From an uncultured Actinomycetota bacterium (GTDB lineage: Bacteria; Actinomycetota; Actinomycetes; Propionibacteriales; Nocardioidaceae): a DNA stretch of 64,000 nt. The position numbers and the translations under genes are program-made. The stretch is taken from assembly GCA_963728505.1 (NCBI GenBank), contig CAVSKH010000003.1, forward strand, positions 513,352 to 577,351, written 5' to 3'. The notes beneath the pieces are model-generated. The model searched no databases. It worked only from the letters and a program-made list of their open reading frames with translations, and was not told where the DNA came from. Positions 42,753-62,260 of this stretch are shown in pieces (the first letter of the stretch is position 1; each line of letters begins with the position of its first letter).

Positions 42753-43690
42753 CTTCGAGCGAATCCTCCGAGGGCCAGGGCCACGGTCACGGGTTGACGC
42801 CGCTGGACGCGGCCAACGCCGGTGCGCGCTACCGCCGACCGCTGCTGGTCGCGTTCGTGCTGACCACGTCGTTCGTGGCGGTCGAGGTCGTCGTCGGTCT
42901 GTTGTCCGGATCTCTGGCCCTGCTCTCCGACGCCGGCCACATGCTCTCCGACGCCGGCGGCCTCGGGATGTCGCTCGCGGCGATCTCGCTGGCCGTCCAC
43001 GGCAGCAGCGCCTCGCACCGCACCTTCGGGTGGTACCGGCTGGAGATCCTGGCGTCGCTGGCCAACACGGTGCTCCTGTTCGCGGTCGCGGCGTACGTGA
43101 TGTGGGAGGCCGTGGCGCGCCTCGGCGGGGACCAGGAGGTCGCCTCCACCCCGATGATCGTCGTCGCCGTTGTCGGGCTGGCGGTCAACCTGGCCTGCTT
43201 CTGGTTGCTGCGGGCAGGCGCCAAGGAGAGCCTGAACCTGCGCGGCGCCTACCTGGAGGTGGTCGCCGACGCCGTCGGCTCGGTGGGGGTGCTGGTCGCC
43301 GCGGTGGTGATCGCGCTCACCGGGTGGCAGCCGGTCGACTCGCTGATGGCCGTGGCGATCGGACTGTTCATCCTCCCCCGCGCCTACCGCCTGGGCCGCG
43401 ACAGCCTGCGGATCCTGGTGGAGTCGGCGCCGGCTCATGTCGACGTCGAGCAGGTCGAGACCGACCTGCGCCAGCTCCCGGACGTGGTGGGGCTGCACGA
43501 CCTGCACGTCTGGACGATCACCTCGGGCATGGATGCGGTCAGCGTGCACCTGGTGGTCGCACCCGGCAGCGACACCCACGCCACGCTCGACCAGGCGCGC
43601 CAGGCGCTGGAGACCCAGCACCGGATCAGCCACGCGACGGTGCAGATCGAGCCCAGCAACCACCGGGGATGCCACCTCGTCCAGTGGTGA
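42749..43690 (+). CDS. cation diffusion facilitator transporter (CzcD/ZitB-like)
   Basis: ATG overlaps the upstream stop (ATGA). His-rich N-terminus GHGHG. Motifs: LALLSDAGHMLSD, YLEVVADAVGS, HDLHVW. Confidence 0.85.
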   Translation: MTSSESSEGQGHGHGLTPLDAANAGARYRRPLLVAFVLTTSFVAVEVVVGLLSGSLALLSDAGHMLSDAGGLGMSLAAISLAVHGSSASHRTFGWYRLEILASLANTVLLFAVAAYVMWEAVARLGGDQEVASTPMIVVAVVGLAVNLACFWLLRAGAKESLNLRGAYLEVVADAVGSVGVLVAAVVIALTGWQPVDSLMAVAIGLFILPRAYRLGRDSLRILVESAPAHVDVEQVETDLRQLPDVVGLHDLHVWTITSGMDAVSVHLVVAPGSDTHATLDQARQALETQHRISHATVQIEPSNHRGCHLVQW

Positions 43691-45598: not shown

Positions 45599-48259
45599 TC
45601 ACCCTGTGTTGCGCAGTCCGGCGGCCACTCCGTTGACCGCCATCAGCAGCACCCGCCGCCACGAGGCCTGTGCCTCGGGGTCAGCGGCAACCCGCAGCTC
45701 TCGCAGCGCCCGCAGCTGGACCACCGACAGCGCGTCGACGTAGCGCGACCGCATCGCCACCCCAGCCTTGAGCGTCGGGTCGTGCTCGAGGAGCGTCTCC
45801 TGGTCGAGCACGTCGAGCAGCCAGGTGCGGGTGAGGTCCATCTCGGCCATCACCTGCCGCGTCAGGTCGGGGCGGTTGCCCAGGAAGAGGAACTGCTCGG
45901 CGAGGGCCCGGTCGGACTTGGCCAGGCTCATCTGCGCCACGTCGAGCATCGCCTCGAACAGTGGCCACTCGCGGGCAGCGGTCCGCAACAGCTCGACGTC
46001 GCCGACCGCGGCGAGTGCCGACCCCAGCCCGTACCAGCCCGGCACGTTGGCCCGGATCTGCGCCCAGGCGAACACCCAAGGAATCGCCCGCAGATCGGCC
46101 AGGTCGCGCCCCGAGGTCGCGCCGCTGCGGCGCACCGGGCGCGACCCCATCCGCAGCTCGCCGATCTCCTCCAACGGGCTGGACAGTGCCACGACGTCGG
46201 CGAACCCGGGGGTCTGCACCAGCTCGAGGTAGGTCGAGCGTGCGGCCTCGTCGAGCCGCTTGCCCAGATCGGCGAACCGTTCGGCCGCCTCGGCGTTGCG
46301 CTGCTCGATCTCCGGAGATGCCGCGCGCAGCACGGCGGAGGTGATCCGTTCGAGGTGTCGCTGTCCGATCATGACGTGGCCGTAGCGGGCGAACACCACT
46401 TCACCCTGCTCGGTCACCTTCAGGCGGTGGCTCACGGATCCGGGCGGCTGCGCGAGGATCGCGCGGTGCAGTGGGCCACCGCCCCGGCCCAAGGATCCGC
46501 CGCGTCCATGGAAGATGGTCAGAGTGACATCATTCTGAGACGCCCACGCCGCGAGGCGCTGCTGGGCGTCGTACAAACCCAGGGTCGCGCTGACCGGGCC
46601 CACGTCCTTGGACGAGTCGGAGTAGCCGACCATCACCTCCAACGCGCGATCGTTGGACTCGACCCACGCCCGCGTCGAGCCGAGCGCCCACCAGGCGTCG
46701 AGCACCTCCGTGCAGTGCGCCAGGTCGTTCCCGGTCTCGAAGAGCGGCACGACGTCGAGCCGGAGCGGGCGGTCACCCAGGGCCAACCGGGCGAGGGCAC
46801 GCACTGCCACCAGGTCGGCAGCGGTCCGGCTGAAGCTGACGACGTAACGTCCACAGCTGTGCGCCCCCCACCGCTCCTGGAGCCACCCCAGCACCCGCAA
46901 GGTGTTGAGCACCTCGCGGGCGAGATCGGTCCTCGGCTCGACGTGGTCGGGCCAGCCGTCGGTCGCGAGCCGGTCCAGCAGCTCGGCATCGCCCGTCGCA
47001 GCCGCCGGGTCCGTCACGTCGGGCACCTGCGCCAGCAGCTCGGTGAGGGTCTTGGAGTGCACCGAGCTGTGCTGGCGCACCTCCAGCTCGGCGAGGTGGA
47101 AGCCGAAGGTCTCCACCTGCCAGATCAGGTTCTGCAGCTCGCCGTACGCCGCTCGCAACGCCCCTGCCCGAGCCAGTGACGACTGCACCAGCCGCAGGTC
47201 CTCGAGCAGCTCGTCGGGACCGTGGTAGGCCGCACCCATGGTGCCGCGCCGGGTGGCCTCCAGCCGGACACCGGCGTGCAGCATCAGCTGCCGGTGAGGC
47301 TCGTCGGGAGAGGCGAGCGCGATGCCCTCCGCGCGGTCCGGGTCCACCACGGCAGCACGAGCCAGGGCGTCACGGAGCTCACGGCTCGGTGGGGTCGACG
47401 CGGCGTCCAGGGTCAAGGTGCGCCCCACCCGGTCGACCGCGGCCACCAGCGCTCGCAGCGCCTGCTCTGCCTGGATCCCGAGGGTCTGCCGGGTGACGTC
47501 GGCGGTGACGTAGGGGTTGCCGTCGCGGTCCCCCCCGATCCAGCTGCCGAAGCGCAGGAACGCCGGCACGACCGGCGCGGACACCCCGGGGTCCGAGCCA
47601 CCCAGCGCCCTCTCGACCGAGCGGTAGAGCCGTGGCACCGCGCGCAGCAAGGTGTCGTCGAAGACGCTCATCGCGGTGCGCACCTCGTCGTACGGCGTCG
47701 GGCGCGTGGTGCGCAGGTAGGCGGTGCGCCAGAGCACCTCGAGCTCCTCGCGGAGCCTGCGCATCGCCACCTCACGCTCGGGCTCCCCGCGCGAGGGGTC
47801 GTCGTACCGGTCGAGCTGGTGGTCGATCCTGCGCAGCGCCGAGGCAACGGCACGCCGCCGAGCCTCGGTCGGGTGCGCGGTCAGGACCGGATGCACCCGG
47901 AGCCGGTGCAGCGAGTCCAGGTCCACCTCACCGGCGCTCAGCGAGGGCCAGGACCCGTCCTCGGCGCCACCATCCTCACCCGCCAGGAACATCCGCACGC
48001 TGTGCCGCTCATCGGCGAGGTTGACCAGGTGGAAGTGGACGGTGAGCGCCTTGGCGACGACCTCGAGCTCGGTCGCGGTGAGGGACTCGGCGAGCGGGCC
48101 CAGCCGGCCCGGATCGGAGCCGCTCTCCGCGACCGTGCGCAGCAGCCGACTGGCGGTGCTGAGCACGTCGCCGGCCCCGGACTCCTCCAGCACGCGGTCC
48201 TGGAGCGAGGTGAGCAGCGTGACGTCGGCCTGGAATCGGTCGGCTCCGGCCTGGGTCAC
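45599..48259 (-). CDS. ppc: phosphoenolpyruvate carboxylase
   Basis: Motifs: VLTAHPTEARRR, GYSDSSKDVG, FHGRGGSLGRGGGP, C-terminal GLRNTG. 886 aa. Confidence 0.92.
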   Translation of the reverse strand: MTQAGADRFQADVTLLTSLQDRVLEESGAGDVLSTASRLLRTVAESGSDPGRLGPLAESLTATELEVVAKALTVHFHLVNLADERHSVRMFLAGEDGGAEDGSWPSLSAGEVDLDSLHRLRVHPVLTAHPTEARRRAVASALRRIDHQLDRYDDPSRGEPEREVAMRRLREELEVLWRTAYLRTTRPTPYDEVRTAMSVFDDTLLRAVPRLYRSVERALGGSDPGVSAPVVPAFLRFGSWIGGDRDGNPYVTADVTRQTLGIQAEQALRALVAAVDRVGRTLTLDAASTPPSRELRDALARAAVVDPDRAEGIALASPDEPHRQLMLHAGVRLEATRRGTMGAAYHGPDELLEDLRLVQSSLARAGALRAAYGELQNLIWQVETFGFHLAELEVRQHSSVHSKTLTELLAQVPDVTDPAAATGDAELLDRLATDGWPDHVEPRTDLAREVLNTLRVLGWLQERWGAHSCGRYVVSFSRTAADLVAVRALARLALGDRPLRLDVVPLFETGNDLAHCTEVLDAWWALGSTRAWVESNDRALEVMVGYSDSSKDVGPVSATLGLYDAQQRLAAWASQNDVTLTIFHGRGGSLGRGGGPLHRAILAQPPGSVSHRLKVTEQGEVVFARYGHVMIGQRHLERITSAVLRAASPEIEQRNAEAAERFADLGKRLDEAARSTYLELVQTPGFADVVALSSPLEEIGELRMGSRPVRRSGATSGRDLADLRAIPWVFAWAQIRANVPGWYGLGSALAAVGDVELLRTAAREWPLFEAMLDVAQMSLAKSDRALAEQFLFLGNRPDLTRQVMAEMDLTRTWLLDVLDQETLLEHDPTLKAGVAMRSRYVDALSVVQLRALRELRVAADPEAQASWRRVLLMAVNGVAAGLRNTG

Positions 48260-49359: not shown

Positions 49360-49537
49360 CGCGGGCGATCACCCCTGATGTGGCTTTTGTCGCAGCGACG
49401 GGAGCCCCACGCTGAGAGATCCGTTGCGCCCTTGGGTCACACTGGAGTCCGTCACCGATGAAATGGGTGGCGTCGGTTGGTCTACCTCCACGAAGATTCT
49501 GGTCGCGGCGCAACCCAGGGGCGAAAGCAGGCACGTC

Positions 49538-51658
49538 ATGCACACTCAGATCGCAGGCAGGCTGACCGGTCGGTTCACCAAGTGGTTGGTCCTTGTCTTC
49601 TGGCTGATCGCCTTGGCAGTGGGTGGCAGCTTCGCCTCCAAGCTGATCGACGTCCAGAACAACGAGGCGTCCTCCTGGCTGCCCGCCACGGCAGAGTCGA
49701 CGCGGGCGCTGGAGAAGCTCACGCCGTTCTACGACCCCGACACGATCCCCACGGTCGTGGCCTACGAGCGGGAGTCCGGCCTCACGCCCGACGACCTCGC
49801 CGCGGGCAAGGCGCAGGCCGAGGAGTTCGCCGGTCTGGACGGAGTGGAAGGCAAGGTCGTCGGGCCGATCCCGTCGCAGGACGGCCAGGCGATGCAGACG
49901 GTGGTGACCTTCAACTTCGGCGCCAACGGCTGGATGGAGATGCCGCAGACCGCCGAGGAGCTTCGCGGGATGGCGCAGATCGACGGCGTGACGACCTACG
50001 TCACCGGGGCCGGCGGTCAGGCTGCGGACCAGTCCGAGGTGTTCGAGGGCATCGACGGCACGTTGCTCCTCTCCGCGCTCAGCGTGGTCATCGTGATCCT
50101 GCTCTTCACCTACCGCAGTCCGGTGCTCTGGATGCTGCCCATCATCAGCGCCGTGGTCGCCCTGATGGTGTCCCAGGGCCTGATCTACTTCCTGGCCAAG
50201 GACGCCGGTCTCACGGTCAACGGGCAGAGCCAGGCGATCCTCTCGATCCTCGTGATCGGGTCGGGCACCGACTACGCCCTGCTGCTCGTCGCGCGATACC
50301 GCGAGGAGCTGCGACGACATGGGGACCGCCACGAGGCGATGGCTTTCGCCCTGCACCGAGCCACGCCCGCGATCCTTGCCAGCGCCGCCACGGTCGTGGT
50401 CGGCATGCTGTGCCTGCTCTTCGCCGAGATGAACTCCACCGCAGGTCTGGGGCCCGTGGCCGCCATCGGTATCGCGGTGACCTTCCTGGTCATGGTGACC
50501 CTGCTGCCGGCGCTGCTGGTGATCACGGGCCGTTGGGTCTTCTGGCCCAAGCGCCCGTCCTACGGCACGCCGGAGCCGACGCAGACCGGGTTCTGGGCTC
50601 GCGTCGCCGAGCGGATCAGCGTTCGGCCACGCAGGGTGTGGGTGATCACCACCGCGGTGCTGGCCATCGCCTGTCTCGGCGTGCTGCGGCTGGACAACTC
50701 GGGCCTGGCAACTGAGGACCAGTACACCGCGGAGGTCGAGTCCGTCGAGGGCCAGCAGATGCTCGCCGAGCACGGACTGGCCGACGCCAGCAACACCCTT
50801 CAGGTGGTTGCGGACGCCGACCAGGCGCAGGCGGTGCGCGCGGCCATGACTGGTGTCGAGGGAGTCGGGCAACCCGCAGAACCCGTGGTTCAAGATGGTC
50901 TGGCCTACCTGGAGGCGCCCCTGGACGGGGACGTCGCGGCCCAGTCGACCTTCGATGCGGTCGAGCAGGTCCGCGACCAGGTGCACGCTGTCCCGGATGC
51001 CGACGCACTGGTCGGTGGCTGGTCGGCGATCTTCCTGGACACGTTGGACGCCTCGGGTCGCGACACGTTGGTGATCATCCCGATCGTCCTGCTCATGGTG
51101 CTGCTCATCCTGGTCGCACTGCTGCGGGCGCTGGTTGCTCCGCTGTTCCTGCTCGCCACGGTGGTCCTGTCGTTCGGCGCGGCTCTCGGGCTGGCGACGC
51201 TGCTGTTCGAGTTCGTCTTCGGCTTCGAGGGGGTCGATCCCTCCTTCCCGTTGTTCGTCTTCGTCTTCCTGGTCGCGCTCGGCATCGACTACAACATCTT
51301 CTTGATGACGCGGGTGCGGGAGGAGACCATGCGCCGCGGCACCCGGCGCGGCTCGGTCGTGGCCCTGGCCTCCACCGGAGGCGTGATCACCTCGGCCGGT
51401 CTGGTGCTGGCCGCGACGTTCCTCGTGCTCGGGTCGATCCCGTTGGTGTTCCTGGCGGAGCTGGGTGTGACGGTGGCGCTGGGCATCCTGCTCGACACGA
51501 TGATCGTCCGCTCGGTCCTGGTCACCGCGCTCAACCTCGATCTCGGTCAGCGCATCTGGTGGCCGAGCCGGCTGGCCAAGCAGGACGAGAGCGCCCTCAC
51601 CCCGCAGCCCGACCCCTGGGAGCTCGAGCACTCCGAGCGTGAGCTCGTCCGCGACTGA
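49538..51658 (+). CDS. MMPL family (RND superfamily) transporter
   Basis: Start at MHTQIAGRLTGRFTKWLVLVFWL. Two 6-TM bundles with large loops. Motifs GTDYALLLVARYREEL and GIDYNIFLMTRVREE. Confidence 0.85.
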   Translation: MHTQIAGRLTGRFTKWLVLVFWLIALAVGGSFASKLIDVQNNEASSWLPATAESTRALEKLTPFYDPDTIPTVVAYERESGLTPDDLAAGKAQAEEFAGLDGVEGKVVGPIPSQDGQAMQTVVTFNFGANGWMEMPQTAEELRGMAQIDGVTTYVTGAGGQAADQSEVFEGIDGTLLLSALSVVIVILLFTYRSPVLWMLPIISAVVALMVSQGLIYFLAKDAGLTVNGQSQAILSILVIGSGTDYALLLVARYREELRRHGDRHEAMAFALHRATPAILASAATVVVGMLCLLFAEMNSTAGLGPVAAIGIAVTFLVMVTLLPALLVITGRWVFWPKRPSYGTPEPTQTGFWARVAERISVRPRRVWVITTAVLAIACLGVLRLDNSGLATEDQYTAEVESVEGQQMLAEHGLADASNTLQVVADADQAQAVRAAMTGVEGVGQPAEPVVQDGLAYLEAPLDGDVAAQSTFDAVEQVRDQVHAVPDADALVGGWSAIFLDTLDASGRDTLVIIPIVLLMVLLILVALLRALVAPLFLLATVVLSFGAALGLATLLFEFVFGFEGVDPSFPLFVFVFLVALGIDYNIFLMTRVREETMRRGTRRGSVVALASTGGVITSAGLVLAATFLVLGSIPLVFLAELGVTVALGILLDTMIVRSVLVTALNLDLGQRIWWPSRLAKQDESALTPQPDPWELEHSERELVRD

Positions 51659-53151: not shown

Positions 53152-53694
53152 ATGACCGAGAAGCCGGAGAGCGACGACGTCGAGCGGAGGGACAGCTCGG
53201 GCCCCCGGTTCGTGGTCCAGCGACACGACGCCAGCAGCCTGCACTTCGACGTGCGCCTGGAGATCGACGGTGTCCTGGTCTCCTGGGCGGTCCCGAAGGG
53301 CCCGTCGCTGGACCCCTCCGACAAGCGACTGGCCCGTCGCACGGAGGACCACGCCCTGGACTACGCCGACTTCGAGGGCCGCATCGAGCAGGGGTACGGC
53401 GCGGGCACCGTGATCGTGTGGGACACCGGTCCCTTCGACAACCTGACCGAGAAGGACGGTGAGCAGGTGCCGCTGGCGCAGGCGCTCGCCCACGGTCACC
53501 TCAAGGTCGACCTGCACGGGGAGAAGCTGACCGGAGCCTTCGCCCTCACTCACACCAGGATGGGCGGCGACGACTCGAGCTGGTTGCTGCTCAAGGTCGA
53601 TGACGCCGCCGCCGACGCTCGCCGCCGGCCGACCTCGACGCAGAACGAGTCCGTGCTCAGCGGCAGGACCAACGAGGACCTCGAGAACGACTAG
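53152..53694 (+). CDS. stand-alone LigD-type 3'-phosphoesterase domain protein
   Basis: Motifs: RFVVQRHDASSLHFDVRLE, SWAVPKGPS, EDHALDY, YGAGTVIVWD, LHGEKLTGAFAL. Confidence 0.8.
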   Translation: MTEKPESDDVERRDSSGPRFVVQRHDASSLHFDVRLEIDGVLVSWAVPKGPSLDPSDKRLARRTEDHALDYADFEGRIEQGYGAGTVIVWDTGPFDNLTEKDGEQVPLAQALAHGHLKVDLHGEKLTGAFALTHTRMGGDDSSWLLLKVDDAAADARRRPTSTQNESVLSGRTNEDLEND

Positions 53695-53737: not shown

Positions 53738-55138
53738 TCAGCCGAGGACGAGCCAGATCGGCCCGGCGGCCAGCCCCATCACGACGGTGGCCGCCGCGGC
53801 GACGACGGCGGCGGTTCGGGGTGCGGGTCCGCCGTCGCTGATCTCGGCGACCTCGTCGAGCCCAGCGGCCGGACGAATGACTGCCCGGATCCAGCGCAGG
53901 TAGTAGTAGAGGCTGACCACCGTGTTCAGCACCAGGGCGACCGCGAGCCAGGCGAGGCCCGCGTCCCAGGTCGCCCCCATCGTGGTGAGCTTGCCGACGA
54001 AGACCGCGGTCGGCGGTGTCCCCACGAGTCCGAGCAGTGCCACGACGAGCGCCGCGGTGAGGCCGGGACGTACCGAGGCGAAGCCCTCCCACTGCTCGAG
54101 CAACCGCCGACCAGGTTCCGCGGCCACGACCGCGAAGGCGGCCAGGTTGGTGATCGCGTAGCCGGCCAGGAAGAACAGCAGGGCAGGCTGACCCTGGTCG
54201 CTGAGCCGGGTCACGGCCGCGGCTGCGAGCAGGTAGCCCACCTGGCTCACGGTCGACCAGCCCAGGAGCCGGCGTACGTCGCTCTGGGCCAACGCCGCGA
54301 GGTTGCCGATGGTCATGCTGGCCACTGCGAGGACCCCCAGCACCGTGGCCCAGCGCACCTCACCCGGAAGCACTGCGACCAGCCGCACGATCGCGACCAG
54401 TGCGCCGATCTTGGGCACGGTCGTGAGGAAGGCCGCCGCGGTCACCGATGCGCCCTGGGTGGCGTCGGGCACCCAGAAGTGGCCCGGGACGCCACCTGCC
54501 TTGAACAGCAGGCCCATGAGCACCAGGAGCCCGCCGCCGCTGACGGCCGCCGCGGGAACGTCGGGCAGCTCGGCTCCGAGCGCTGTGTACCCGGCCTGGC
54601 CTGCGAGGGCGTAGAGCAGGACGGCGCCGAGCATCAGCAGGATGCCGAACAGGGCGCCGAACAGGTAGGTCTTCAGAGCCGCTTCGGGCGAGCCCGGACG
54701 GGCCACGATCCCCACCAACCCGTAGAGCGGAAGGCTAGAGAGCAGGAATGCCACGACCAGCAGCGCCAGGTCGGTGCACCCCGCGAGCAGGAGGGTGCCG
54801 GTGGCGCCGAAGAGCAGCAGGCTGTAGATCTCGCTCTCTCGCGGATGATCACGCACGTCTCCCGACGCCATGAGCAGGATCAGCAGGAGCGACACGGTCA
54901 CCGTGGCACGGGCCGCCCCGGTCCACGTGTCGACGACAAAGGTGCCGGAGAAGGCAGTCTGCGCATCGCCGGCCCAGGCGACGACGCCCGCGGCCAGGCC
55001 GGCGGCCGTGGCGGCTGCCGCCACGAGGCCCATCCGCCACTGGCGCGTCCGCGGGGTGAACGACCCGCCGATCAGCGTGACCATCCCACCCAGGAAGAGC
55101 AGCGCCTCGGGCAGCACGGCCAGCAGGTCACTCCCCAT
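53738..55138 (-). CDS. nuoN: complex-I antiporter-like subunit, NuoN-like
   Basis: 466 aa with about 14 TMS. Motifs FKAGGVPGHFWVPD and LLGWSTVSQVGYLL, typical of the NuoN/MrpD family. Confidence 0.75.
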   Translation of the reverse strand: MGSDLLAVLPEALLFLGGMVTLIGGSFTPRTRQWRMGLVAAAATAAGLAAGVVAWAGDAQTAFSGTFVVDTWTGAARATVTVSLLLILLMASGDVRDHPRESEIYSLLLFGATGTLLLAGCTDLALLVVAFLLSSLPLYGLVGIVARPGSPEAALKTYLFGALFGILLMLGAVLLYALAGQAGYTALGAELPDVPAAAVSGGGLLVLMGLLFKAGGVPGHFWVPDATQGASVTAAAFLTTVPKIGALVAIVRLVAVLPGEVRWATVLGVLAVASMTIGNLAALAQSDVRRLLGWSTVSQVGYLLAAAAVTRLSDQGQPALLFFLAGYAITNLAAFAVVAAEPGRRLLEQWEGFASVRPGLTAALVVALLGLVGTPPTAVFVGKLTTMGATWDAGLAWLAVALVLNTVVSLYYYLRWIRAVIRPAAGLDEVAEISDGGPAPRTAAVVAAAATVVMGLAAGPIWLVLG

Positions 55139-55147
55139 CGCTGCCTC

Positions 55148-56641
55148 TCACCGCCCCACGAGCTGCGCGAGGACGGCAGCACCGGGCTCGATGACGTCGA
55201 GCAACGCGCGCGGCAGGACCCCGATGAACACCGAGAAGCCCAGCAGCAGCGCGACCGGTGCCCACTCCCGGGGCGTGACGTCGGAGAAGCCGACCGAGAG
55301 GCCCGCGGTGGTTCCGGTGAACACTCGCTGCAGCGCCCGCAGGAACAGGGCCGCCGTGATCAGGATGCCGAGCACGGCCACCGCGGTCACGGGCACGGTG
55401 GCGATGCTTCCGGCGAAGATCTGGAACTCGGCGATGAACCCGGACAGCGCCGGGAGGCCCAGCGACCCGAACGCCGCCACCGTGAAGAGCGTGGCGTAGC
55501 GCGGGGCGCTCGCGGCCAGCCCACCGTAGCCGTCGAGGTCGTACTTCCCGGTGCGCTCGAACATGGTGCCCGCGAGCAGGAACAGGGCCGCAGTGAGCAG
55601 GCCGTGGCTGACCATCTGCGTGACTGCGCCGGTCACCGCGACCCCGCGTGCCTCGTCCGCACCGTCGGACAGCACCCCGGCGGCACCGACGGCGAGGACG
55701 ACGTAGCCCATGTGGTTGACCGAGGTGTAGGCGATCATCCGCTTCAGGTCGGTCTGCGCGAAGGCGACGAGCGCGCCCCAGAGCACCGAGACGATCCCGA
55801 CCACGATCACGACCCAGGCCCAGGCCCGCCAGGCGTCGGGCAGCATCGGCATCGCGATCCGGACGAACCCGTAGGTCCCCATCTTCAGCAGCACACCTGC
55901 CAGCACGGCGGAGCCGATTGCTGGGGCGTCGCTGTGGGCGGGGGGAAGCCAGGTGTGGAACGGGAACGTCGGCGTCTTCACGGCCAGCCCGAGCAGCAGC
56001 GCGGCCAGGACCAGTCCACCCGCGACCCCCTGCCCCTGGAGCGGCGGCTCGGCGGCGAGCTGGACCATGTCGAAGGTGTGCGGGTCGGAAGCGACGTACA
56101 GGCCGACGAAGCCGAGCAGCAGGGCCAGTGACCCGAGGAAGGTGTAGAGGAAGAACTTCAGCGCCGACCGGGCGGCGTTCCCGTGCCCCCACCCGCTGAT
56201 CGAGAAGTACATGGCCACGATCGAGAGGTCGAAGAAGACGAAGAACAGGATCAGGTCCGCCGAGACGAACAGCCCGAGGCAGACCGCTTCGAGGAACAGG
56301 AACAGCGCTGCCTGCAACCGGGGCCGGTGCTGCTCGCGTACGGCGAAGACGGCGCAGGCCACGAACACGAGCGTGGTCATCACCACCAGCGGCAAGGAGA
56401 GCCCGTCGACGCCGACGTGGTAGCTCGACCCCACGCCCGGGATCCACCGGGCCTGTTGCTCCAGCGCCAACGCCCCCGCCGCCGGGGTCTCGTACCTCGC
56501 CCAGGCCACGCCTGCGAGCAGGACCTCGACCACAGTGACGGCGACGAAGCCGACCCGCGCAACCCGGTCGCCGACCTGCGGGACCAGGAGCCCCGCGGCC
56601 GCCACGAGTGGGAGGAAGACCAGGACAGAGAGCACGTTCAC
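55148..56641 (-). CDS. nuoM: complex-I antiporter-like subunit, NuoM-like
   Basis: 497 aa. Motifs: VKTPTFPFHTWLPPAHSDAP, LKRMIAYTSVNHMGYV. GTG start overlaps the NuoL-like stop (GTGA). Confidence 0.8.
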   Translation of the reverse strand: MNVLSVLVFLPLVAAAGLLVPQVGDRVARVGFVAVTVVEVLLAGVAWARYETPAAGALALEQQARWIPGVGSSYHVGVDGLSLPLVVMTTLVFVACAVFAVREQHRPRLQAALFLFLEAVCLGLFVSADLILFFVFFDLSIVAMYFSISGWGHGNAARSALKFFLYTFLGSLALLLGFVGLYVASDPHTFDMVQLAAEPPLQGQGVAGGLVLAALLLGLAVKTPTFPFHTWLPPAHSDAPAIGSAVLAGVLLKMGTYGFVRIAMPMLPDAWRAWAWVVIVVGIVSVLWGALVAFAQTDLKRMIAYTSVNHMGYVVLAVGAAGVLSDGADEARGVAVTGAVTQMVSHGLLTAALFLLAGTMFERTGKYDLDGYGGLAASAPRYATLFTVAAFGSLGLPALSGFIAEFQIFAGSIATVPVTAVAVLGILITAALFLRALQRVFTGTTAGLSVGFSDVTPREWAPVALLLGFSVFIGVLPRALLDVIEPGAAVLAQLVGR

Positions 56642-58509
56642 CTCACGAGGACGAGGACGAGGAGGACGACGGCCAGCACGGCCAGCGCTTGGAGGTAGTA
56701 CTGGTGGAGCTGCCCGGTCTGCACCCTGCGGGCCAAGGCGCCGAGGCGTCGTACGCCGGACACGACTGCAGTGACGCCACCATCGAGAGCGCGGTCGTCG
56801 AGGCGCCCTGCGACGCGGGTCAGCCGCAGCGTGCCGCGTGCGGTCGCCTCGACGCCGCGGTCCAGCACGGCGTCGTCGAGGTGCGCGAGCCGGTGCGCGA
56901 TCCCTTCGACGGGCCGGACCACGGCGCGGTGAGCGAACCGCTCGAGGAGCAGCCAGTCCGTGAGCGCCTCAGGCCAGGTGAGCTGCCGGACGGCGCCACT
57001 CCGCATCACCGCCACCGTCACGGCGGTGACCACGATCGCGACCAGTGCGGACGCCACCAGCTCGAGCGAGCTGGGCTCCGGGGCGGCGCCGCCCACCAGC
57101 TCGTGCACCCTCGTGAACAGCGGCGGAAGCGCGAGCACTCCGAGGGTGAGGGCGCCCGCCGCCAGTGGGACGAGCGGGAGCCACGCGATCACGGGTGCCT
57201 CCCGGGTGCCGACACGCTCGTCGTCCCACCGCGACTCGGCGTCCTCGGGGAGGCGGCGGCTCAGCACGACCAGCGCCTTGGTGGCGTACGCGGCCGACAG
57301 AGCGGCCCCGAGCAGTCCGATCAGGTAGAGAGCGGACGACTGCTCGGCCGCAGCGGCGAGCACGGTGTCCTTGGTCGCCCACAGCGCCAGCGGCGGGAGT
57401 CCTGCCAGAGAGAGGAGTGCGGCCGCGGCGCACGCGCCCACCACCGGCCAGAGCCGGGCCGCCCCGGTGAGGGAGGCCAGGCGTTTGGTGCCGAGCGCCT
57501 CCAGCCAGAGCCCGGCGGCCAGGAACAGACCGGCCTTGACCGCCGCGTGAGCCACCAGGTGGGTGGCACCGCCCGCGGTCGCCCCGACCCCGGCCGCCAG
57601 CACCACGAAGCCGAGCTGGGCGGCGGTGGAGGCGGCCAGGAGCTGCTTGAGGTCACCTTGGGCAAGGGCGACCAGGCCGAGCAGCACCGCGGTGGCCGCA
57701 CCAGCCCAGGCCGCGGCTTCGTCGGCCCAGCCGGTCGCTGCGAGCGTCGGCGAGACCCGCAGCAGCAGATAGCCGCCCATCGCGACCATCGCGGCCGAGT
57801 GCAGGAGCGCGCTGACCGGGCTGGGACCTCGCATCGCTCGCGACAACCAGAACGAGAACGGCAGCTGGGCCGCCTTCCCGAGCCCGGCCACCACCAGCCC
57901 GGCGGCCGCCACGTCACGCCAGCCGCCGGAGGCATGCGGGAGGGCGGTGAGACCGAGCCCCGCTCCCCCGGCCAGCGCGGCACCCGCCGCGACGTAGAGA
58001 CCGAGGTCCGCGGTCCGGGTGGTCAGGAACGCCGTCGTGCCCGAGCTGACCGTCGCGGGGTCGCGCCAGTGGTAGCCGATGAGCGCGAAGGAGGTCGCCC
58101 CCATCACCTCCCACGACAGCAGCAGCGCCGGAAGCGTGGTGGCCACCACGGTCATCAGCACCGCCGCCACGAACAGCAGCATCAGCCCGTGGAACCGCGC
58201 CGTGCGCAGCTCAGGGGTGCCGGTCGCCGCCAGCAGCACGAGCACCGACACCACCGCGACCGCCGGCAGCACCAGAGCGGCCAGGCCGTCCACGCCCAGT
58301 GCGAGGTCGGCACCCGCCATGAACGGCATGGCCACCGAGGGCCGCGCTGCCGCAGGGAAGGAGACCACGAAGGAGACCACCGCCAGCAGTGCGGCCGATC
58401 CGACCGCGACCGGAGCAGCGAACCGGTCGGCCGCGGTGCCGACCAGCAGCAGCAGTGCGCCCACGACAGCGGGCACCACCACGAGCGCGACGAGAGCGAG
58501 GTCGTGCAT
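56638..58509 (-). CDS. nuoL: complex-I antiporter-like subunit, NuoL-like
   Basis: Real start at MHDLALV (58509), inside track ORF 56638..58821. Motifs: WEVMGATSFALIGYHW, GKAAQLPFSFWLSRAMRGPSPVSALLHSA. Long C-terminal helix region. Confidence 0.8.
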   Translation of the reverse strand: MHDLALVALVVVPAVVGALLLLVGTAADRFAAPVAVGSAALLAVVSFVVSFPAAARPSVAMPFMAGADLALGVDGLAALVLPAVAVVSVLVLLAATGTPELRTARFHGLMLLFVAAVLMTVVATTLPALLLSWEVMGATSFALIGYHWRDPATVSSGTTAFLTTRTADLGLYVAAGAALAGGAGLGLTALPHASGGWRDVAAAGLVVAGLGKAAQLPFSFWLSRAMRGPSPVSALLHSAAMVAMGGYLLLRVSPTLAATGWADEAAAWAGAATAVLLGLVALAQGDLKQLLAASTAAQLGFVVLAAGVGATAGGATHLVAHAAVKAGLFLAAGLWLEALGTKRLASLTGAARLWPVVGACAAAALLSLAGLPPLALWATKDTVLAAAAEQSSALYLIGLLGAALSAAYATKALVVLSRRLPEDAESRWDDERVGTREAPVIAWLPLVPLAAGALTLGVLALPPLFTRVHELVGGAAPEPSSLELVASALVAIVVTAVTVAVMRSGAVRQLTWPEALTDWLLLERFAHRAVVRPVEGIAHRLAHLDDAVLDRGVEATARGTLRLTRVAGRLDDRALDGGVTAVVSGVRRLGALARRVQTGQLHQYYLQALAVLAVVLLVLVLVR

Positions 58510-58811
58510 CAGCCGTGCAGCTCTGTGGCCATGTCGGTCATGTCGTGCCCGGCCTGACGGTGCAACAGCGTGGCGACGGCGAAGCCCATCGCCATCTCCA
58601 CCGTCATCGCCGCGATCACCACCAGCAGCAGCACCTGCCCCGACGGGTCCGGCGCCAGGAACCACCACAACCCGCCCGCTGCCAGGATGACGCCGTTGAT
58701 CATCAGCTCCAGGCCCATCATCACCATGACGACCACCTGTTGTGACAGGGCGCCGTACACCCCCACCGCCATCAGCGCGGCGGCCACGAGCAGCACGGTC
58801 TCGAGCGTCAT
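58509..58811 (-). CDS. nuoK: NuoK-like small membrane subunit
   Basis: 100 aa: MTLETVLLVAAALMAVGVYG...GLELMINGVIL...VIAAMTVEMAMGFAV, with conserved TM glutamates. ATGA overlap with NuoJ-like and a 1-nt overlap with NuoL-like. Confidence 0.75.
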   Translation of the reverse strand: MTLETVLLVAAALMAVGVYGALSQQVVVMVMMGLELMINGVILAAGGLWWFLAPDPSGQVLLLVVIAAMTVEMAMGFAVATLLHRQAGHDMTDMATELHG

Positions 58812-59380
58812 CGACCGACACCCCCTGGCTGGGGGTCGTCGGCCGGTCGACGGTCGAGGGCGTCGCCGAGCCGGTCGTAGCGGGTGCGGTGCGAGGAGAG
58901 GACGACGCCGGCCACGATCGTGGAGACCATCACCGGACCCATCGCGATCATCACGATCATGTGTGACTCCATGATCGCCTCCCCCAGCGCAGCCGTGACG
59001 TCCCCGGTGGGCGCCCCACGCCGGGTCGGCCACGGCACGAGCAGGGCACCGGCTCCCAGGAACAGGAACGTCCCGACTCCGGCTGCGATCGAGGAACGGT
59101 GGGAGTGGACCATGCTCATCGGCATCAACGCCGGGTTCATCCCCATGAACATGACCATGTAGACCGCCATCACCGCCATCTCCATGACCATCATCAGGAT
59201 CACGATCACCCCCATGTACGCCTGGCCCAGCAACAGCAGCGCCACCCCGACGGACACGAAGGACACCGCCAGCGCGTACGTCGCCCGAGCCATCGAGTCG
59301 ACGTAGAACACCAGCGCACCCGCGACCACCGACACCACGGCGCACAGCCAGAACCCCACGTCGACGAGGACGGCGTTCAT
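58808..59380 (-). CDS. nuoJ: NuoJ-like membrane subunit with Met-rich segment
   Basis: 190 aa. N-terminal TM pattern and position between the H-like and K-like genes. 13 Met in the 39-residue stretch MGVIVILMMVMEMAVMAVYMVMFMGMNPALMPMSMVHSH (59099-59215). Confidence 0.6.
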   Translation of the reverse strand: MNAVLVDVGFWLCAVVSVVAGALVFYVDSMARATYALAVSFVSVGVALLLLGQAYMGVIVILMMVMEMAVMAVYMVMFMGMNPALMPMSMVHSHRSSIAAGVGTFLFLGAGALLVPWPTRRGAPTGDVTAALGEAIMESHMIVMIAMGPVMVSTIVAGVVLSSHRTRYDRLGDALDRRPADDPQPGGVGR

Positions 59381-59404
59381 CGGTTCTCCTTTCCGCGGAC
59401 GAGG

Positions 59405-60334
59405 TCAGTTGGCGCCAACAGCGATGACGGAGACGACCAGGTCCTGCGCGACGACGAGGGGCAGCACGACCACCCAGCCGAGCTCGAGGAGCCTGTCGGG
59501 ACGCAGTGTCGGCAGCCGGCGACCGACCAGCACGAGCACACCGCTCAGGAGGAGGGTCTTGACGAGCACCCACACCCACCCGGGGAGCAGCGGACCGGTG
59601 GCGCCGCCGAGGAACAGCGGCACCGCCGCTGCAGACCCTGCGACCAGGAGGGCGTAGCGCCCCGCCAGCACCAGCAGGCGATCCACGCCGGCGAGCTCGG
59701 CGAGGATCCCGCCGTTGATGTCCGTGCCGGCACCGGGATCCATCGGTGGCCGGACCGAGAAACCCAGCACCCCCCAGCAGTACGCCGCGAACGCCACCGG
59801 CGCCCACACCACGAACCACAAGCCCTCCTGGGCCGCGGAGATCTCCGCCAGGTCCAGGCTGCCCGCCGCGATCGCCGGTGCGGTGAGCGCGAACATCAGC
59901 GGGAGCTCGTAACCCAACGCGAGGGCGAGGAACCGGTAGCCCCCCACGAGCCCCGCGATGGAGTTCGCCCCCCAGCCGAGCAGCCACATCACCGCCCACG
60001 CCACCACGTCGAGCGCGTTCACCCACACCACTCCCAGCGGGTGGTCCACCAGGGCATGGCTGCCCAGCGGGACGAACGCCACGATGAGGACCGCCAGCGG
60101 GATCACCGCTGAGGAGGCGGAGCGCCACAGCAGCCGATCGGCCGAAACCGTGCGGCGCGGGCGCTGGCGCAACAGCCGTGCCGTCTCGCGGAGCGGGACC
60201 GTCAGTCCCGATCGGACAGGCAGGCCCCGGTCGCGGGCCTCCAGAGCCGCGGAGACGCCGCCCACCGAGAGGGACGCAGCCGCGAGGCCCAGCATGACCG
60301 GCGCCGCGTAGACCAGGGACAGGGAGTCAGCCAT
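59405..60334 (-). CDS. nuoH: NuoH-like membrane subunit (divergent)
   Basis: 309 aa, 8-TM pattern. WGANSIAGLVGGYRFLALALGYELPLMF aligns to the NuoH SNSKY..GGLR...SYE region but is degenerate. Confidence 0.65.
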   Translation of the reverse strand: MADSLSLVYAAPVMLGLAAASLSVGGVSAALEARDRGLPVRSGLTVPLRETARLLRQRPRRTVSADRLLWRSASSAVIPLAVLIVAFVPLGSHALVDHPLGVVWVNALDVVAWAVMWLLGWGANSIAGLVGGYRFLALALGYELPLMFALTAPAIAAGSLDLAEISAAQEGLWFVVWAPVAFAAYCWGVLGFSVRPPMDPGAGTDINGGILAELAGVDRLLVLAGRYALLVAGSAAAVPLFLGGATGPLLPGWVWVLVKTLLLSGVLVLVGRRLPTLRPDRLLELGWVVVLPLVVAQDLVVSVIAVGAN

Positions 60335-61454
60335 CCGCCGCCCCCGACAGCTGGTGCTCGGCCAGGTCCGGCGCCATCGCCGCCAGCCACAGCCTTGCTG
60401 CGGCCAGCTCCATCCCCTGGACCAGCGTGGGCAGCGCCTCGGCAGACCGCGCCACGTGGTGCCGCGCCTCCCCGTCGAGCTCGGCCTGCGCGCGCTCGTA
60501 CAGACCCGTGAGCCGGTCGGTCAGGTCCTCGGAACCACCATGACTGCCCTCGGCCTCGAGCCCGCGCAAGACCCACCGCAACACCCGCCGCCGACCGACA
60601 CGCTCGCCGAGCCCGGCCACCTCGCGCCCGTCGACCAGCTCACCGTCGAGACACCGGTCACGCAGCCTCAGCGTCCGCGCGGACTCGGCCGGCAGACCTG
60701 CGAGCGCCAGCACCGAGCCGCCCGCGTCGAGCAGGCGCGCCGCCCGCACGATCGCGTCATCCGGACCCGACCGAGCCCCTGACGTCGCGAGCTGCTCGAC
60801 CTCGGCGCCGACGATGACGTCACCGTGCAGGGTCACGTGGAGCACCAGACCGGCGGGCCAGTGCGCGAGCACCGGCCCGAGCGGCAGGTGGAGCTCGTCC
60901 ATCTCCAGGCCGTCGCGATCCTCCGCCCCCTCGGCCAGCGCGATCCCGTCCGGCATCATCGCGCCGTGGTCGTGACCCCCGTGGTCGTCCCCCTCGTCGT
61001 GGCCACCGTCGTCCCCGTGGTCGTGGCCACCGTCATCGCCGTGGTCGTCGCCGTGGTCGTGCCCGTCGTGGTCGTGCTCCTGCGCCACGTCCTCGGCGGA
61101 GGGGGTGAAGCCGCGCCGCACCTCCGATCCGGTGAGACGCCGCGCAACACCGTTGAGCTGCTCGCGCGCCTCGCGGAGCAGCGTGTCCGCGTCGGTCTCG
61201 GCGCGCAGCCGGAACCGCACCCGGGGCTCCGACATCTGTCCCCACACCTGTTCGATCACGTCCGCCAACGCCTCGCCGGGCTCACCGACGACGGCCAGGA
61301 CATCCGCGTCTGCCACGGACTCGGCGATGCACCACCCCGCGCGGTCGAGCGCGCGCTCGAGGGCGACACGCTCCCGGAAGGCACCCGGAGCCTCCGCGAC
61401 GAGGACGTGAGCGCGCGAGCCCCCCGCCCTGGTCAGGACGTCGATCAGGCCCAC
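60327..61454 (-). CDS. fused, cofactor-less NuoB-like / NuoD-like protein with His/Asp/Gly insert
   Basis: GTG at 61454, inside track ORF 60327..61679. ADVLAVVGEPGEALADVIEQVWGQMSEPRVR resembles NuoB ADVMIVAGT...VYDQMPEPKWV. LPLGPVLAHWPAGLVLHVTLHGDVIVGAEVE resembles NuoD [22 protein letters not shown]. Only 2 Cys in the whole protein. Confidence 0.6.
   Translation of the reverse strand: MGLIDVLTRAGGSRAHVLVAEAPGAFRERVALERALDRAGWCIAESVADADVLAVVGEPGEALADVIEQVWGQMSEPRVRFRLRAETDADTLLREAREQLNGVARRLTGSEVRRGFTPSAEDVAQEHDHDGHDHGDDHGDDGGHDHGDDGGHDEGDDHGGHDHGAMMPDGIALAEGAEDRDGLEMDELHLPLGPVLAHWPAGLVLHVTLHGDVIVGAEVEQLATSGARSGPDDAIVRAARLLDAGGSVLALAGLPAESARTLRLRDRCLDGELVDGREVAGLGERVGRRRVLRWVLRGLEAEGSHGGSEDLTDRLTGLYERAQAELDGEARHHVARSAEALPTLVQGMELAAARLWLAAMAPDLAEHQLSGAADG
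60964..61080. repeat. imperfect short-period coding repeats (gtggtcgtS-type) encoding a His/Asp/Gly tract
   Basis: Encodes HDHDGHDHGDDHGDDGGHDHGDDGGHDEGDDHGGHDHG: 38 residues made of 11 H, 14 D, 12 G and 1 E. Confidence 0.85.
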
Positions 61455-61786
61455 CGGAACGCCCCCTCGCGACGTGCCCAGAGGACGGCCAGCAAGAGCA
61501 CCAGCAAGAAGCCGAACATCTCGATCACGGCCCCGGGACCGAGGTGTGCCACGACCACTGCCCAGGGATACATGAACAGCATCTCGACGTCGAAGGCGAG
61601 GAACACCACGCTGGCGGTGTACCAGCGGGCGTGATACCTCGACAGAGCGTGCTCGGTCGGGCGATGTCCCGACAGCCACGACTCGACCTCGAAGGGACTC
61701 GCGGACATCGCGGTCCAGCGGGCCAGCAGCCGAAGCGCCACCACGACGCCGATCGAGGCGACGAAGAGGGAGAGCAAGGAGTCCAT
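61445..61786 (-). CDS. nuoA: NuoA-like small membrane subunit
   Basis: Start at MDSLLSLF, with gggagg 7 nt upstream. FLAFDVEMLFMYPWAVV matches the NuoA F.FDvE..fl.PW motif. Confidence 0.7.
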   Translation of the reverse strand: MDSLLSLFVASIGVVVALRLLARWTAMSASPFEVESWLSGHRPTEHALSRYHARWYTASVVFLAFDVEMLFMYPWAVVVAHLGPGAVIEMFGFLLVLLLAVLWARREGAFRWA

Positions 61787-61888
61787 CGACGACCTCCCTT
61801 GCTCTGGACGTTGGCTGCGCACCGGTCGCTGACCTACGCTACATACTCGACACCCGTCCCGTCATGCGGATGTTTCTGGAGGACGACC

Positions 61889-62260
61889 GTGACCGACCAC
61901 GCACACCCCGTGGACCCAGGAGCAGTCAGCCGTGCCCGGCAACGCCTCCTGGAACCCACGCAGGCCGAACGGGTCACCAGCGTGCTGACCCTCATCGCCG
62001 ACCCCACTCGGATGCGCCTGCTGTTCGCACTCGACGCTGCCGAGGAGCTCTGCGTCGGAGACCTCGCCCTGGCGCTCGATGCCTCCGAGGACGCTGTCGG
62101 CTACGGCCTGCGGATGCTCAGGACAGCAGGGCTCGTGAGCCGACGCAAGGATGGACGGACGGTGTTCTACCGCCTGGCGCAGGAGTTTCCCGAACCGCTT
62201 CGCCAGCACTGCCTGGTCCGCCTCGCCGACATGTCCACCGAGACGCCCACCGACTCCTGA
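61889..62260 (+). CDS. ArsR/SmtB family metalloregulator
   Basis: GTG is preceded by ggagga. LIADPTRMRLLFALDAAEELCVGDLALAL ... GLVSRRKDGRTVFYRL (wHTH). Confidence 0.85.
   Translation: MTDHAHPVDPGAVSRARQRLLEPTQAERVTSVLTLIADPTRMRLLFALDAAEELCVGDLALALDASEDAVGYGLRMLRTAGLVSRRKDGRTVFYRLAQEFPEPLRQHCLVRLADMSTETPTDS

Follow-up and report, generated by a model that had tools for sequence, protein, structure and literature searches.

A gene cluster that encodes the membrane arm of a complex I, but no module for the input of electrons, raises the question of what drives the encoded complex and what it transports. Such a cluster is located in a window of 64,000 nucleotides from an uncultured member of the Nocardioidaceae (assembly GCA_963728505.1, contig CAVSKH010000003.1, positions 513,352 to 577,351); the term window is used here for this whole stretch of DNA, which has a G+C content of about 72%. 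Eight genes on the minus strand (53738-61786) encode NuoA-, NuoH-, NuoJ- and NuoK-like as well as NuoL-, NuoM- and NuoN-like subunits and one soluble protein of 375 amino acids (Table 1). Judged from gene content, residue conservation and the genes surrounding its relatives, the operon encodes a membrane arm derived from complex I which has lost its cofactor sites and may export Cu(I) or Ag(I), driven by the proton gradient; a probability of roughly 45% is given to this reading of export. An earlier note, made from the letters of this DNA alone, had described a membrane-arm-only complex I relative with one soluble fusion and no redox-cofactor sites, and had called its driver unknown. The description was borne out, and the question of the driver is narrowed by a copper context which the note had overlooked, namely the adjacent Cu+ ATPase, the methionine-rich NuoJ and NuoK and the copper islands of relatives.

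Gene content and distribution of the cluster

The genes follow each other in the order A-fusion-H-J-K-L-M-N on a single strand without any insertion. Their junctions measure -10 nt (A/fusion), -8 nt (fusion/H), +24 nt (H/J), -4 nt (J/K, ATGA), -1 nt (K/L), -4 nt (L/M, GTGA) and +9 nt (M/N), and the eight genes are translationally coupled. The overlaps listed in the earlier note were all reproduced exactly, and its assignments of NuoA, H, J, K, L, M and N are backed by Pfam and NCBIfam models. ATG 61786 is the right start of NuoA; the Shine-Dalgarno sequence AGGGAGG lies 6 nt upstream of it. The three antiporter-like subunits, taken in the order of their genes, are best matched by the NCBIfam models NuoL, NuoM and NuoN, and the Nuo models score better than the Mrp models. 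In the Protein Data Bank (PDB), the NuoJ-like product matches NuoJ chains from T. elongatus and M. smegmatis. As the note had stated, no gene for NuoC, NuoE, NuoF, NuoG or NuoI was found within the cluster of the window, which is flanked by an ArsR gene and a LigD 3'-phosphoesterase domain gene.

Table 1. Features of the eight-gene cluster and its flanks (positions in the window).
Feature	Position	Strand	Evidence or remark
LigD 3'-phosphoesterase domain gene	53152-53694	+	convergent, closes the cluster
NuoN-like antiporter subunit	53738-55138	-	Proton_antipo_M; best model TIGR01770
NuoM-like antiporter subunit	55148-56641	-	Proton_antipo_M; TIGR01972, 458 bits (cut-off 263.8)
NuoL-like antiporter subunit, long C-terminal extension	56638-58509	-	Proton_antipo_M; best model NF005141 (NuoL), residues 6-622
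NuoK-like subunit	58509-58811	-	Oxidored_q2, PF00420, E 2e-11
NuoJ-like subunit	58808-59380	-	Oxidored_q3, PF00499, E 1e-7, 32.0 bits (cut-off 33.2)
Methionine ladder in NuoJ TM3 and the next loop	59105-59197	-	13 of the 16 conserved NuoJ methionines
NuoH-like subunit	59405-60334	-	NADHdh, PF00146, E 3e-42
Soluble 375-aa fusion (NuoB-like domain, linker, reduced NuoD-like domain)	60327-61454	-	no Pfam match
Disordered His/Asp/Gly-rich linker of the fusion	60960-61133	-	residues ~108-165; pLDDT <50
NuoA-like subunit, 113 aa	61445-61786	-	Oxidored_q4, PF00507, E 5e-21; start ATG 61786
Candidate operator	61850-61873		inverted repeat (7-10-7, imperfect), ACACCCG-N10-CGGATGT, in the space between the arsR and nuoA-like genes
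ArsR/SmtB-family metalloregulator	61889-62260	+	PF01022; NF033788, 72 bits (cut-off 55)
Cu+-type P1B ATPase, C-terminal 575 aa	62273-64000	-	TIGR01511, 495 bits (cut-off 397); cut by the window end

One genome per species was pattern-scanned for relatives of the fusion protein; 423 genomes had one, and the best 80 loci were fetched. These best 80 of the 423 relatives all belong to the Actinomycetota, the closest to the window being metagenome genomes of Nocardioidaceae. Among the carriers are Mycobacterium simiae, M. innocens, M. colombiense, M. szulgai and Mycolicibacterium as well as Gordonia, Janibacter, Arthrobacter, Cryobacterium, Micromonospora, Kribbella, Pseudonocardia, Flaviflexus, Arachnia and Demequina. 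The order A-fusion-H-J-K-L-M-N is uninterrupted in every fetched locus with enough sequence, and none of the 80 fetched clusters contained a gene for NuoC, NuoE, NuoF, NuoG or NuoI. In an exhaustive profile search, the fusion protein gave 576 clusters at 50% identity (E<=1e-30, about 320-490 amino acids), whose named members are all actinobacterial 'hypothetical proteins'. Furthermore, the fusion gene matches 17 plasmid records, including plasmids of M. intracellulare, Rhodococcus, Gordonia and Pseudonocardia, and the whole cluster is present on plasmid 1 of Arthrobacter sp. FB24 and on pMAH135 of M. avium, the two plasmids which were inspected. The family is separate, widespread and strictly conserved.

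At the loci L005, L008, L011, L015, L020, L027 and L068, the tblastn matches to the fusion, L, M or N genes were split, which suggests frameshifts or pseudogenes, or errors in the assembly of the metagenomes.

That the cluster is a duplicate of nuo which has lost its function and is decaying is strongly disfavoured, to the point of being hardly credible. Reading frames are split in some loci, and on the plasmid of Streptomyces sp. NBC_00080 (L084) a remnant consisting of nuoA and a fragment of the fusion gene is found, as such decay would predict. However, the eight ORFs of the window are intact and coupled, have no internal stops and show a G+C content of 0.89-0.94 at third codon positions (GC3), and the number of fusion clusters, the gene order and the key residues, kept across at least six actinobacterial orders, speak against decay as well.

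The cluster has been known since 2012 as a 'partial NDH-1/nuo operon' with the order nuoA-hypothetical-nuoHJKLMN, described for Salinispora (Penn and Jensen, 2012, PMC3314556) as well as for Streptomyces SM17/SM18 and Kocuria flava (PMC6676996; PMC6002675). The window cluster is a member of this published family, as the earlier note had supposed when it pointed to the partial second nuo sets of actinomycetes. The 'hypothetical protein' of Kocuria flava lies between nuoA and nuoH of the same eight-gene cluster and is a homologue of the fusion family, in which proteins of K. flava, K. marina, K. rhizophila and Micromonospora are found at E ~1e-100; the homology of the second gene was thus checked with Kocuria, and Salinispora was assigned by its published gene order. 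There is no structural difference to the published operon, which includes the unannotated second gene and a divergent NuoJ, annotated as hypothetical in the Salinispora-type cluster (Penn and Jensen, 2012, PMC3314556) and scoring below the Pfam threshold in the window. The difference is one of interpretation only: here the second gene is described as a cysteine-free, NuoB-derived fusion, and the complex as methionine-lined, linked to copper and not specific to marine bacteria. The literature searches found neither a link between the partial nuo operon and copper nor a functional test of the operon, nor a structural or evolutionary treatment of it. The fixed order, the methionine-rich NuoJ and NuoK, the copper association and the cysteine-free cap derived from NuoB appear to be unreported in the literature that was searched.

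The fusion protein and the membrane subunits

The product of the second gene contains no Pfam domain. With a profile of 27 homologues, its residues 35-83 matched NuoB/PSST/NDUFS7 chains of the PDB (E 8e-6), and the pairwise comparison with E. coli NuoB gave z=6.1, with 0 of 500 shuffles equal or better. An AlphaFold2 model (mean pLDDT 79.6) shows confident N- and C-domains, and a Foldseek search with the whole model returned NuoB chains as top matches, at a TM score of about 0.5 of the target. The N-domain is established as a NuoB homologue. No cysteine is conserved anywhere in the protein among 79 homologues, and the protein of the window contains two in all (C42 and C269); the four ligands of the N2 cluster have consequently been lost.

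The C-domain comprises about 210 residues with a confidently predicted fold. About 30 of its 50 top Foldseek matches in the PDB belong to the NuoD family (NdhH, MbsL, Nqo4, NDUFS2, NuoCD, HycE), at TMq values of 0.39-0.49 and E-values of 0.8-6, which are not significant. Sequence homology of this domain to NuoD was rejected, since the profile search against the PDB returned designed coiled coils only and no NuoD match, the comparison with E. coli NuoCD gave an hhalign probability of 0.2, and the shuffled pairwise comparison with NuoD gave z=-0.8. The model gives a hint that the C-domain resembles a cut-down NuoD, at the level of the fold only. Of the soluble B/D fusion proposed in the earlier note, the B half is thereby upheld, and the D half is reduced to this resemblance.

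The two domains are connected by a disordered linker, which measures 8-112 amino acids in the 79 homologues (median 47) and consists of 19.5% Asp, 18.9% Gly, 15.8% His and 7.4% Met. Repeats of the type MDHG(D/G) occur in most lineages outside the clade of the window. On pMAH135 (L082, 16007-17257), the fusion protein carries the RefSeq label 'DUF4779 domain-containing protein', an artefact that most likely stems from the low complexity of its His/Asp-rich linker. Two further members of the fusion family are unusual: P0247, with 711 amino acids, has an N-terminal extension of about 350 residues, and P0363 comes from a record labelled 'Helicobacter pylori', which is probably a contamination.

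In the following, the positions of residues that are kept or replaced relative to E. coli refer to the E. coli numbering; in the family alignments, the residues of the window NuoA itself are counted from the longer ORF starting with GTG 61822, so that 12 has to be subtracted for the numbering from ATG 61786. In NuoA, D79 and E81 are invariant (61 members), two conserved histidines have been gained in the loop between the transmembrane helices (TM) 1 and 2, and three conserved methionines are located around FDVEMLFMYPW. In NuoK, E36 and E72 are invariant. NuoH keeps E157, Y156, R148, K274 and R293 as invariant residues and has an invariant Asp in place of E220. Its TM1-2 loop is about nine residues shorter in the region FQNRYGPNRVG, E36 is replaced by Ala, and the TM5-6 loop has been stripped of most of its acidic residues, with Ala and Gly in place of E216 and E218. 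The quinone-site loops of NuoH are degenerate, in agreement with the earlier note.

These loops bear on the idea that the cluster encodes an alternative membrane arm which docks to a canonical arm of NuoB-G and NuoI encoded elsewhere and forms a second NADH dehydrogenase. Hosts such as the mycobacteria have a complete nuo operon elsewhere, which counts in favour of such docking, as does the description of the cluster as an extra copy in the literature. Besides the state of the NuoH loops, however, the cluster's own NuoB-like/NuoD-like cap, which has no Fe-S ligands, would fill the docking site, and the travel of the cluster on plasmids between genera makes it unlikely that it depends on the peripheral arm of a particular host. 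A docking arm is therefore considered very improbable.

The antiporter-like subunits retain most of their charged residues. At least 65 of the 66 NuoL members share E144, D178, K229, H254, H338, K342, K399 and D400, and the C-terminal lateral helix as well as the last TM align with E. coli NuoL. NuoM has conserved K234, K265, E407, H322 and H348 and an invariant Asp in place of E144 (64/64). K247, K395, K158 and H224 are conserved in NuoN, and the Glu of its TM5 (E. coli E133) is replaced by an invariant Leu (62/62). In NuoJ, M72 is kept, His92 is conserved, Y59 and G61 are both replaced by invariant Met, and a new conserved Glu67 is found three residues past Y59M. All in all, the seven membrane subunits keep the Lys/Glu/His axis except for NuoN E133L, NuoM E144D and NuoJ Y59M and G61M, and the relay in L, M and N is, as far as the alignments indicate, largely intact.

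A further variable position is K217 in TM7 of NuoN (K213 in the window, ~54500-54502), where 50 of the 62 sequences have Lys and the other 12 have Glu, a charge reversal at a normally invariant position.

NuoJ and NuoK are enriched in methionine, which accounts for 10.5% and 11% of their residues, respectively. The share is 1.6-2.3% in the H, L, M and N subunits encoded by this operon, and the E. coli counterparts of NuoJ and NuoK have 3.3% and 5.0%. Sixteen methionines of NuoJ (76 sequences) and 8 of NuoK are conserved in 90% or more of the members. Most of those in NuoJ form a ladder in the segment LMMVMEMAVMAVYMVMFMGMNPALMPMSMVH, which is nearly invariant across orders; in M. smegmatis NuoJ, the part that aligns contains about 4 methionines in about 167 residues. 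In NuoK, the methionines flank both glutamates (MVMMGLELM and AAMTVEMAMG). Clusters of methionines with thioether ligands only carry Cu(I) or Ag(I) in CusA, CusB, CusF and Ctr1, and repeats of Met, His and Asp bind copper in oxidases of the CopA/PcoA type and in ATPases of the CopB type.

Copper genes at relatives and the proposed function

The neighbourhood was evaluated for the 67 loci whose flanking sequence came to 5 kb or more, with only about 3.4 kb available on the downstream side; flanking ORFs were clustered, and their families were checked with Pfam and NCBIfam. Recurrent neighbours are multicopper oxidases, ArsR, histidine kinase/response-regulator pairs, DUF305/CopM proteins, Cu-type P1B ATPases, CsoR/RicR-like regulators, CDF and ZIP-like proteins. 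A copper-type gene (multicopper oxidase, Cu ATPase, CsoR or DUF305/CopM) was found in the flanks of 31 loci and a metal gene of any kind in those of 39, and ArsR genes occur at 17, usually divergent and directly upstream of nuoA. A rough, uncontrolled estimate puts genes of this kind at about 0.2% of an actinobacterial genome, compared with about 6% of the flanking genes here.

In relatives from several independent lineages, copper genes precede the cluster on the same strand at a short distance. In L038, csoR and copA end 42 bp upstream of nuoA, in L033 the genes of a multicopper oxidase and CopM lie 129 bp upstream, and in Nocardioides ferulae and N. furvisabuli (L050, L075) those of a multicopper oxidase and a DUF305 protein are 32-86 bp away. 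On Arthrobacter FB24 plasmid 1, a multicopper oxidase gene is separated by 88 bp from the cluster, in a block which also contains genes for DUF305 and a sulfocyanin-like copper protein. Additionally, at a distance of about 4-6 kb upstream of the cluster, pMAH135 has genes which encode MerR, a P1B ATPase and an HMA protein, and in Kocuria flava (L085, 18044-21344) a multicopper oxidase and a DUF305 gene are located 1.5-3.3 kb downstream.

Because the complex has neither an electron-input module nor Fe-S ligands, it cannot be a primary, redox-driven pump, and it follows that it would be a secondary transporter in the manner of Mrp. The relay of L, M and N and the carboxylates that K, A and H have retained are arguments for a machine which is ion-coupled and works. 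Cu(I), possibly also Ag(I), is suggested as its substrate by four features taken together: the methionine ladder, the His and Met residues gained in the quinone-cavity loops, the His/Asp/Met-rich tether and the copper genes nearby. The loops in question, between TM1 and TM2 of NuoA and between TM3 and TM4 of NuoJ, are cytoplasmic and line the quinone cavity in complex I structures.

For the transport, its substrate, its direction and its path, all of which we infer from these observations, the following scheme is proposed. Protons would enter through the antiporter-like subunits L, M and N, and their inward movement would be coupled through the retained charged axis of NuoH, A, J and K to the export of a soft metal cation, for which Cu(I) is the most probable candidate and Ag(I) a further possibility. 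In the cytoplasm, the metal would be captured by the linker of the cap derived from NuoB and NuoD, would enter the former quinone cavity past the loops with their gained His and Met residues and would then pass along the methionine ladder of NuoJ TM3 and NuoK. The complex may work alongside the adjacent Cu+ ATPase and an extracytoplasmic multicopper oxidase. As a speculation, the invariant E133L of NuoN at the junction of NuoK and the first antiporter-like subunit could insulate the metal path from the proton path. In the wider form of this reading, which is held more tentatively than the export by this operon itself, the complex I membrane arm would have given rise to a new class of Cu(I)/Ag(I) efflux systems, in which the E-channel of NuoH, A, J and K, relined with methionine, may be the metal path and the NuoB/NuoD remnant with its His/Met tether the loading cap, and which would have spread on plasmids and copper islands, including those of non-tuberculous mycobacteria.

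Several points weigh against copper export. No recognised copper gene was found in 36 of the 67 sampled flanks, of which the downstream part covers only ~3.4 kb, and the family assignment of the ArsR protein in the window leaves the metal that it senses unspecified. The linkers of a few family members are short and poor in His, so that the linker cannot be essential. The methionines of NuoJ and NuoK are placed by sequence and could face either the channel or the lipid. The loss of the TM5 Glu in NuoN and the Asp in NuoM could mean an altered or weakened proton relay. Moreover, an outward opening of the E-channel is not known in complex I, and the exit path of the metal is hypothetical. Finally, the published association is one with marine or 'hyperosmotic' isolates (PMC3314556; PMC6676996; PMC6002675).

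This association underlies the published reading, in which the operon serves marine adaptation as a proton pump or in osmotic defence, and in which the second gene is described as having no homologues (PMC3314556; PMC6676996; PMC6002675). A Na+ or K+/H+ antiporter of the Mrp type, or a 'proton pump', for adaptation to salt or alkaline pH would fit the enrichment by which the cluster was picked out in marine and sponge isolates of Salinispora, Streptomyces and Kocuria, the homology of the three antiporter-like subunits to MrpA and MrpD and the retained acidic residues of the central axis. As a primary pump, however, it fails on energetics, because the module for energy input is absent. The family is also common in soil metagenome genomes, in clinical mycobacteria and on plasmids and is hence not specific to the sea, and the published carriers themselves include isolates whose source was a copper mine or copper-rich mine fluids, from which no inference had been drawn (PMC6676996; PMC6002675). 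Antiport of Na+ or K+ would furthermore leave the 24 conserved methionines, the His-rich linker and the copper neighbours unexplained, and it is regarded as unlikely.

Alternatively, the complex could support the cell under copper stress without transporting copper, for example as a regulated conduit for protons or charge by which the membrane potential is restored or dissipated once copper has damaged respiration, or as a cytoplasmic, membrane-anchored buffer or sensor of copper for which the His-rich protein would be used. The copper-gene context and a linker of the metal-binding type would be the same in this case, and the altered TM5 residues of NuoN and NuoM suggest a non-canonical handling of protons. 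Eight genes with about 2,700 codons in strict order and with a preserved charged axis would, however, be costly for buffering alone, and the methionines are located within the membrane and not in the cytoplasm. Such an accessory role is thus rather doubtful, even more so than cation antiport.

If copper export is correct, the operon represents a new class of transporter in bacterial metal homeostasis with a CusCBA-like role, in a phylum for which only ATP-driven copper export is well described, and a decade of annotation as 'marine adaptation gene' would be corrected. It would also provide a natural experiment on the coupling in complex I and Mrp, at the junction of NuoH, J and K to the antiporter-like subunits, where the redox trigger was lost and the axis was kept, with the defined substitutions of NuoJ (Y59M, G61M), NuoN (E133L) and NuoM (E144D). 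The cluster gains ecological and some clinical relevance from being carried by plasmids of M. avium and M. intracellulare as well as by metal-resistance islands in the environment. If copper export is wrong, the operon is an ordinary member of a family that has been noted but is uncharacterised. Together, the cysteine-free cap, the methionine-lined core and the copper association turn the question of its function into a specific and cheaply testable hypothesis.

Related systems, regulation and neighbouring genes

With respiratory complex I, the cluster shares the seven membrane subunits in their canonical relative order, the lateral helix of NuoL and most residues of the charged axis. It differs in the absence of NuoC, E, F, G and I, in the NuoB-like domain without the N2 cysteines, in the NuoD-like domain of ~210 residues with no detectable sequence similarity, in the quinone loops of NuoH and in the substitutions of NuoJ, NuoN and NuoM named above. 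Mrp (Mnh/Pha/Sha) is likewise a cofactor-free member of the superfamily with subunits of the NuoL/M/N and NuoK types; it is driven by the proton gradient and is the best model for how the complex of the cluster could work. In contrast to the cluster, it has MrpE, F and G, in place of which NuoH, NuoA and the NuoB/D-like cap are found here, and the predicted substrate is a different one.

The earlier note had also compared the cluster with the energy-converting-hydrogenase-related (Ehr) complexes. These have been described as related to the group 4 NiFe hydrogenases, with the Ni/Fe ligands alone missing, and as presumably coupling a cytoplasmic redox reaction. Both are relatives of complex I, and the NuoD-like subunit of Ehr has no NiFe ligands. 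In Ehr complexes, the large subunit has its full length and the small subunit is an Fe-S protein, whereas the fusion protein has no conserved Cys and thus no Fe-S ligands, and its remnant of the large subunit is half-size and recognisable at the fold level only. By this definition of the Ehr subunits, membership was rejected.

The nuo2 set of Streptomyces consists of nuoA2, B2, H2, I2, J, K2, L2, M2 and N2, with nuoD2 located elsewhere. It is, too, a second and incomplete actinomycete nuo set without an NADH module, but it possesses separate nuoB2 and nuoI2 genes, in place of which the family of the window has the fusion gene. Identity with nuo2 was rejected on this gene content, and the cluster is not an even more reduced version of that set, as had been proposed, but belongs to a separate family.

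CusCBA, an RND-type system of Gram-negative bacteria, exports Cu(I) and Ag(I) along methionine sites and is driven by the proton gradient. The predicted job is all that the cluster has in common with it, that is, Cu(I)/Ag(I) export along methionine sites, with a multicopper oxidase and a Cu ATPase encoded nearby. The two systems are not homologous, and both the architecture and the type of cell envelope are entirely unlike.

The arsR gene of the window is divergent from the nuoA-like gene at a distance of 102 bp, and the expression of the operon is probably controlled by this putative ArsR-type metal sensor. Between the two genes, a conserved block (61836-61873) comprises TACGCTACATAC and a 7-10-7 inverted repeat. 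It is kept in six relatives (L004, L005, L013, L017, L018 and L020); the repeat, which was seen by aligning relatives, is perfect in L005, and an exact-seed search of the intergenic region for inverted repeats found none. It is possible that the block contains both an ArsR operator and the -10 region of the nuoA-like operon. A sigma-70 promoter scan found nothing, and terminator-like sites were at chance level, with 3 found and 1.9 expected.

The Cu+ ATPase gene is convergent with arsR. Its translation contains the motifs CPC, N-x6-YN-x4-P and M-x2-SS-x5-N and is 76% identical to the Cu ATPase adjacent to the cluster in Mycobacterium innocens (L049). Downstream of the cluster, genes for an MMPL-family transporter (49424-51658, plus strand) and a phosphoenolpyruvate carboxylase (45599-48259, minus strand) have no apparent link to it. 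Finally, a CDF-like gene on the plus strand (42782-43651), about 10 kb from the operon, encodes a product which is 38% identical to the CDF protein near the cluster in L003.

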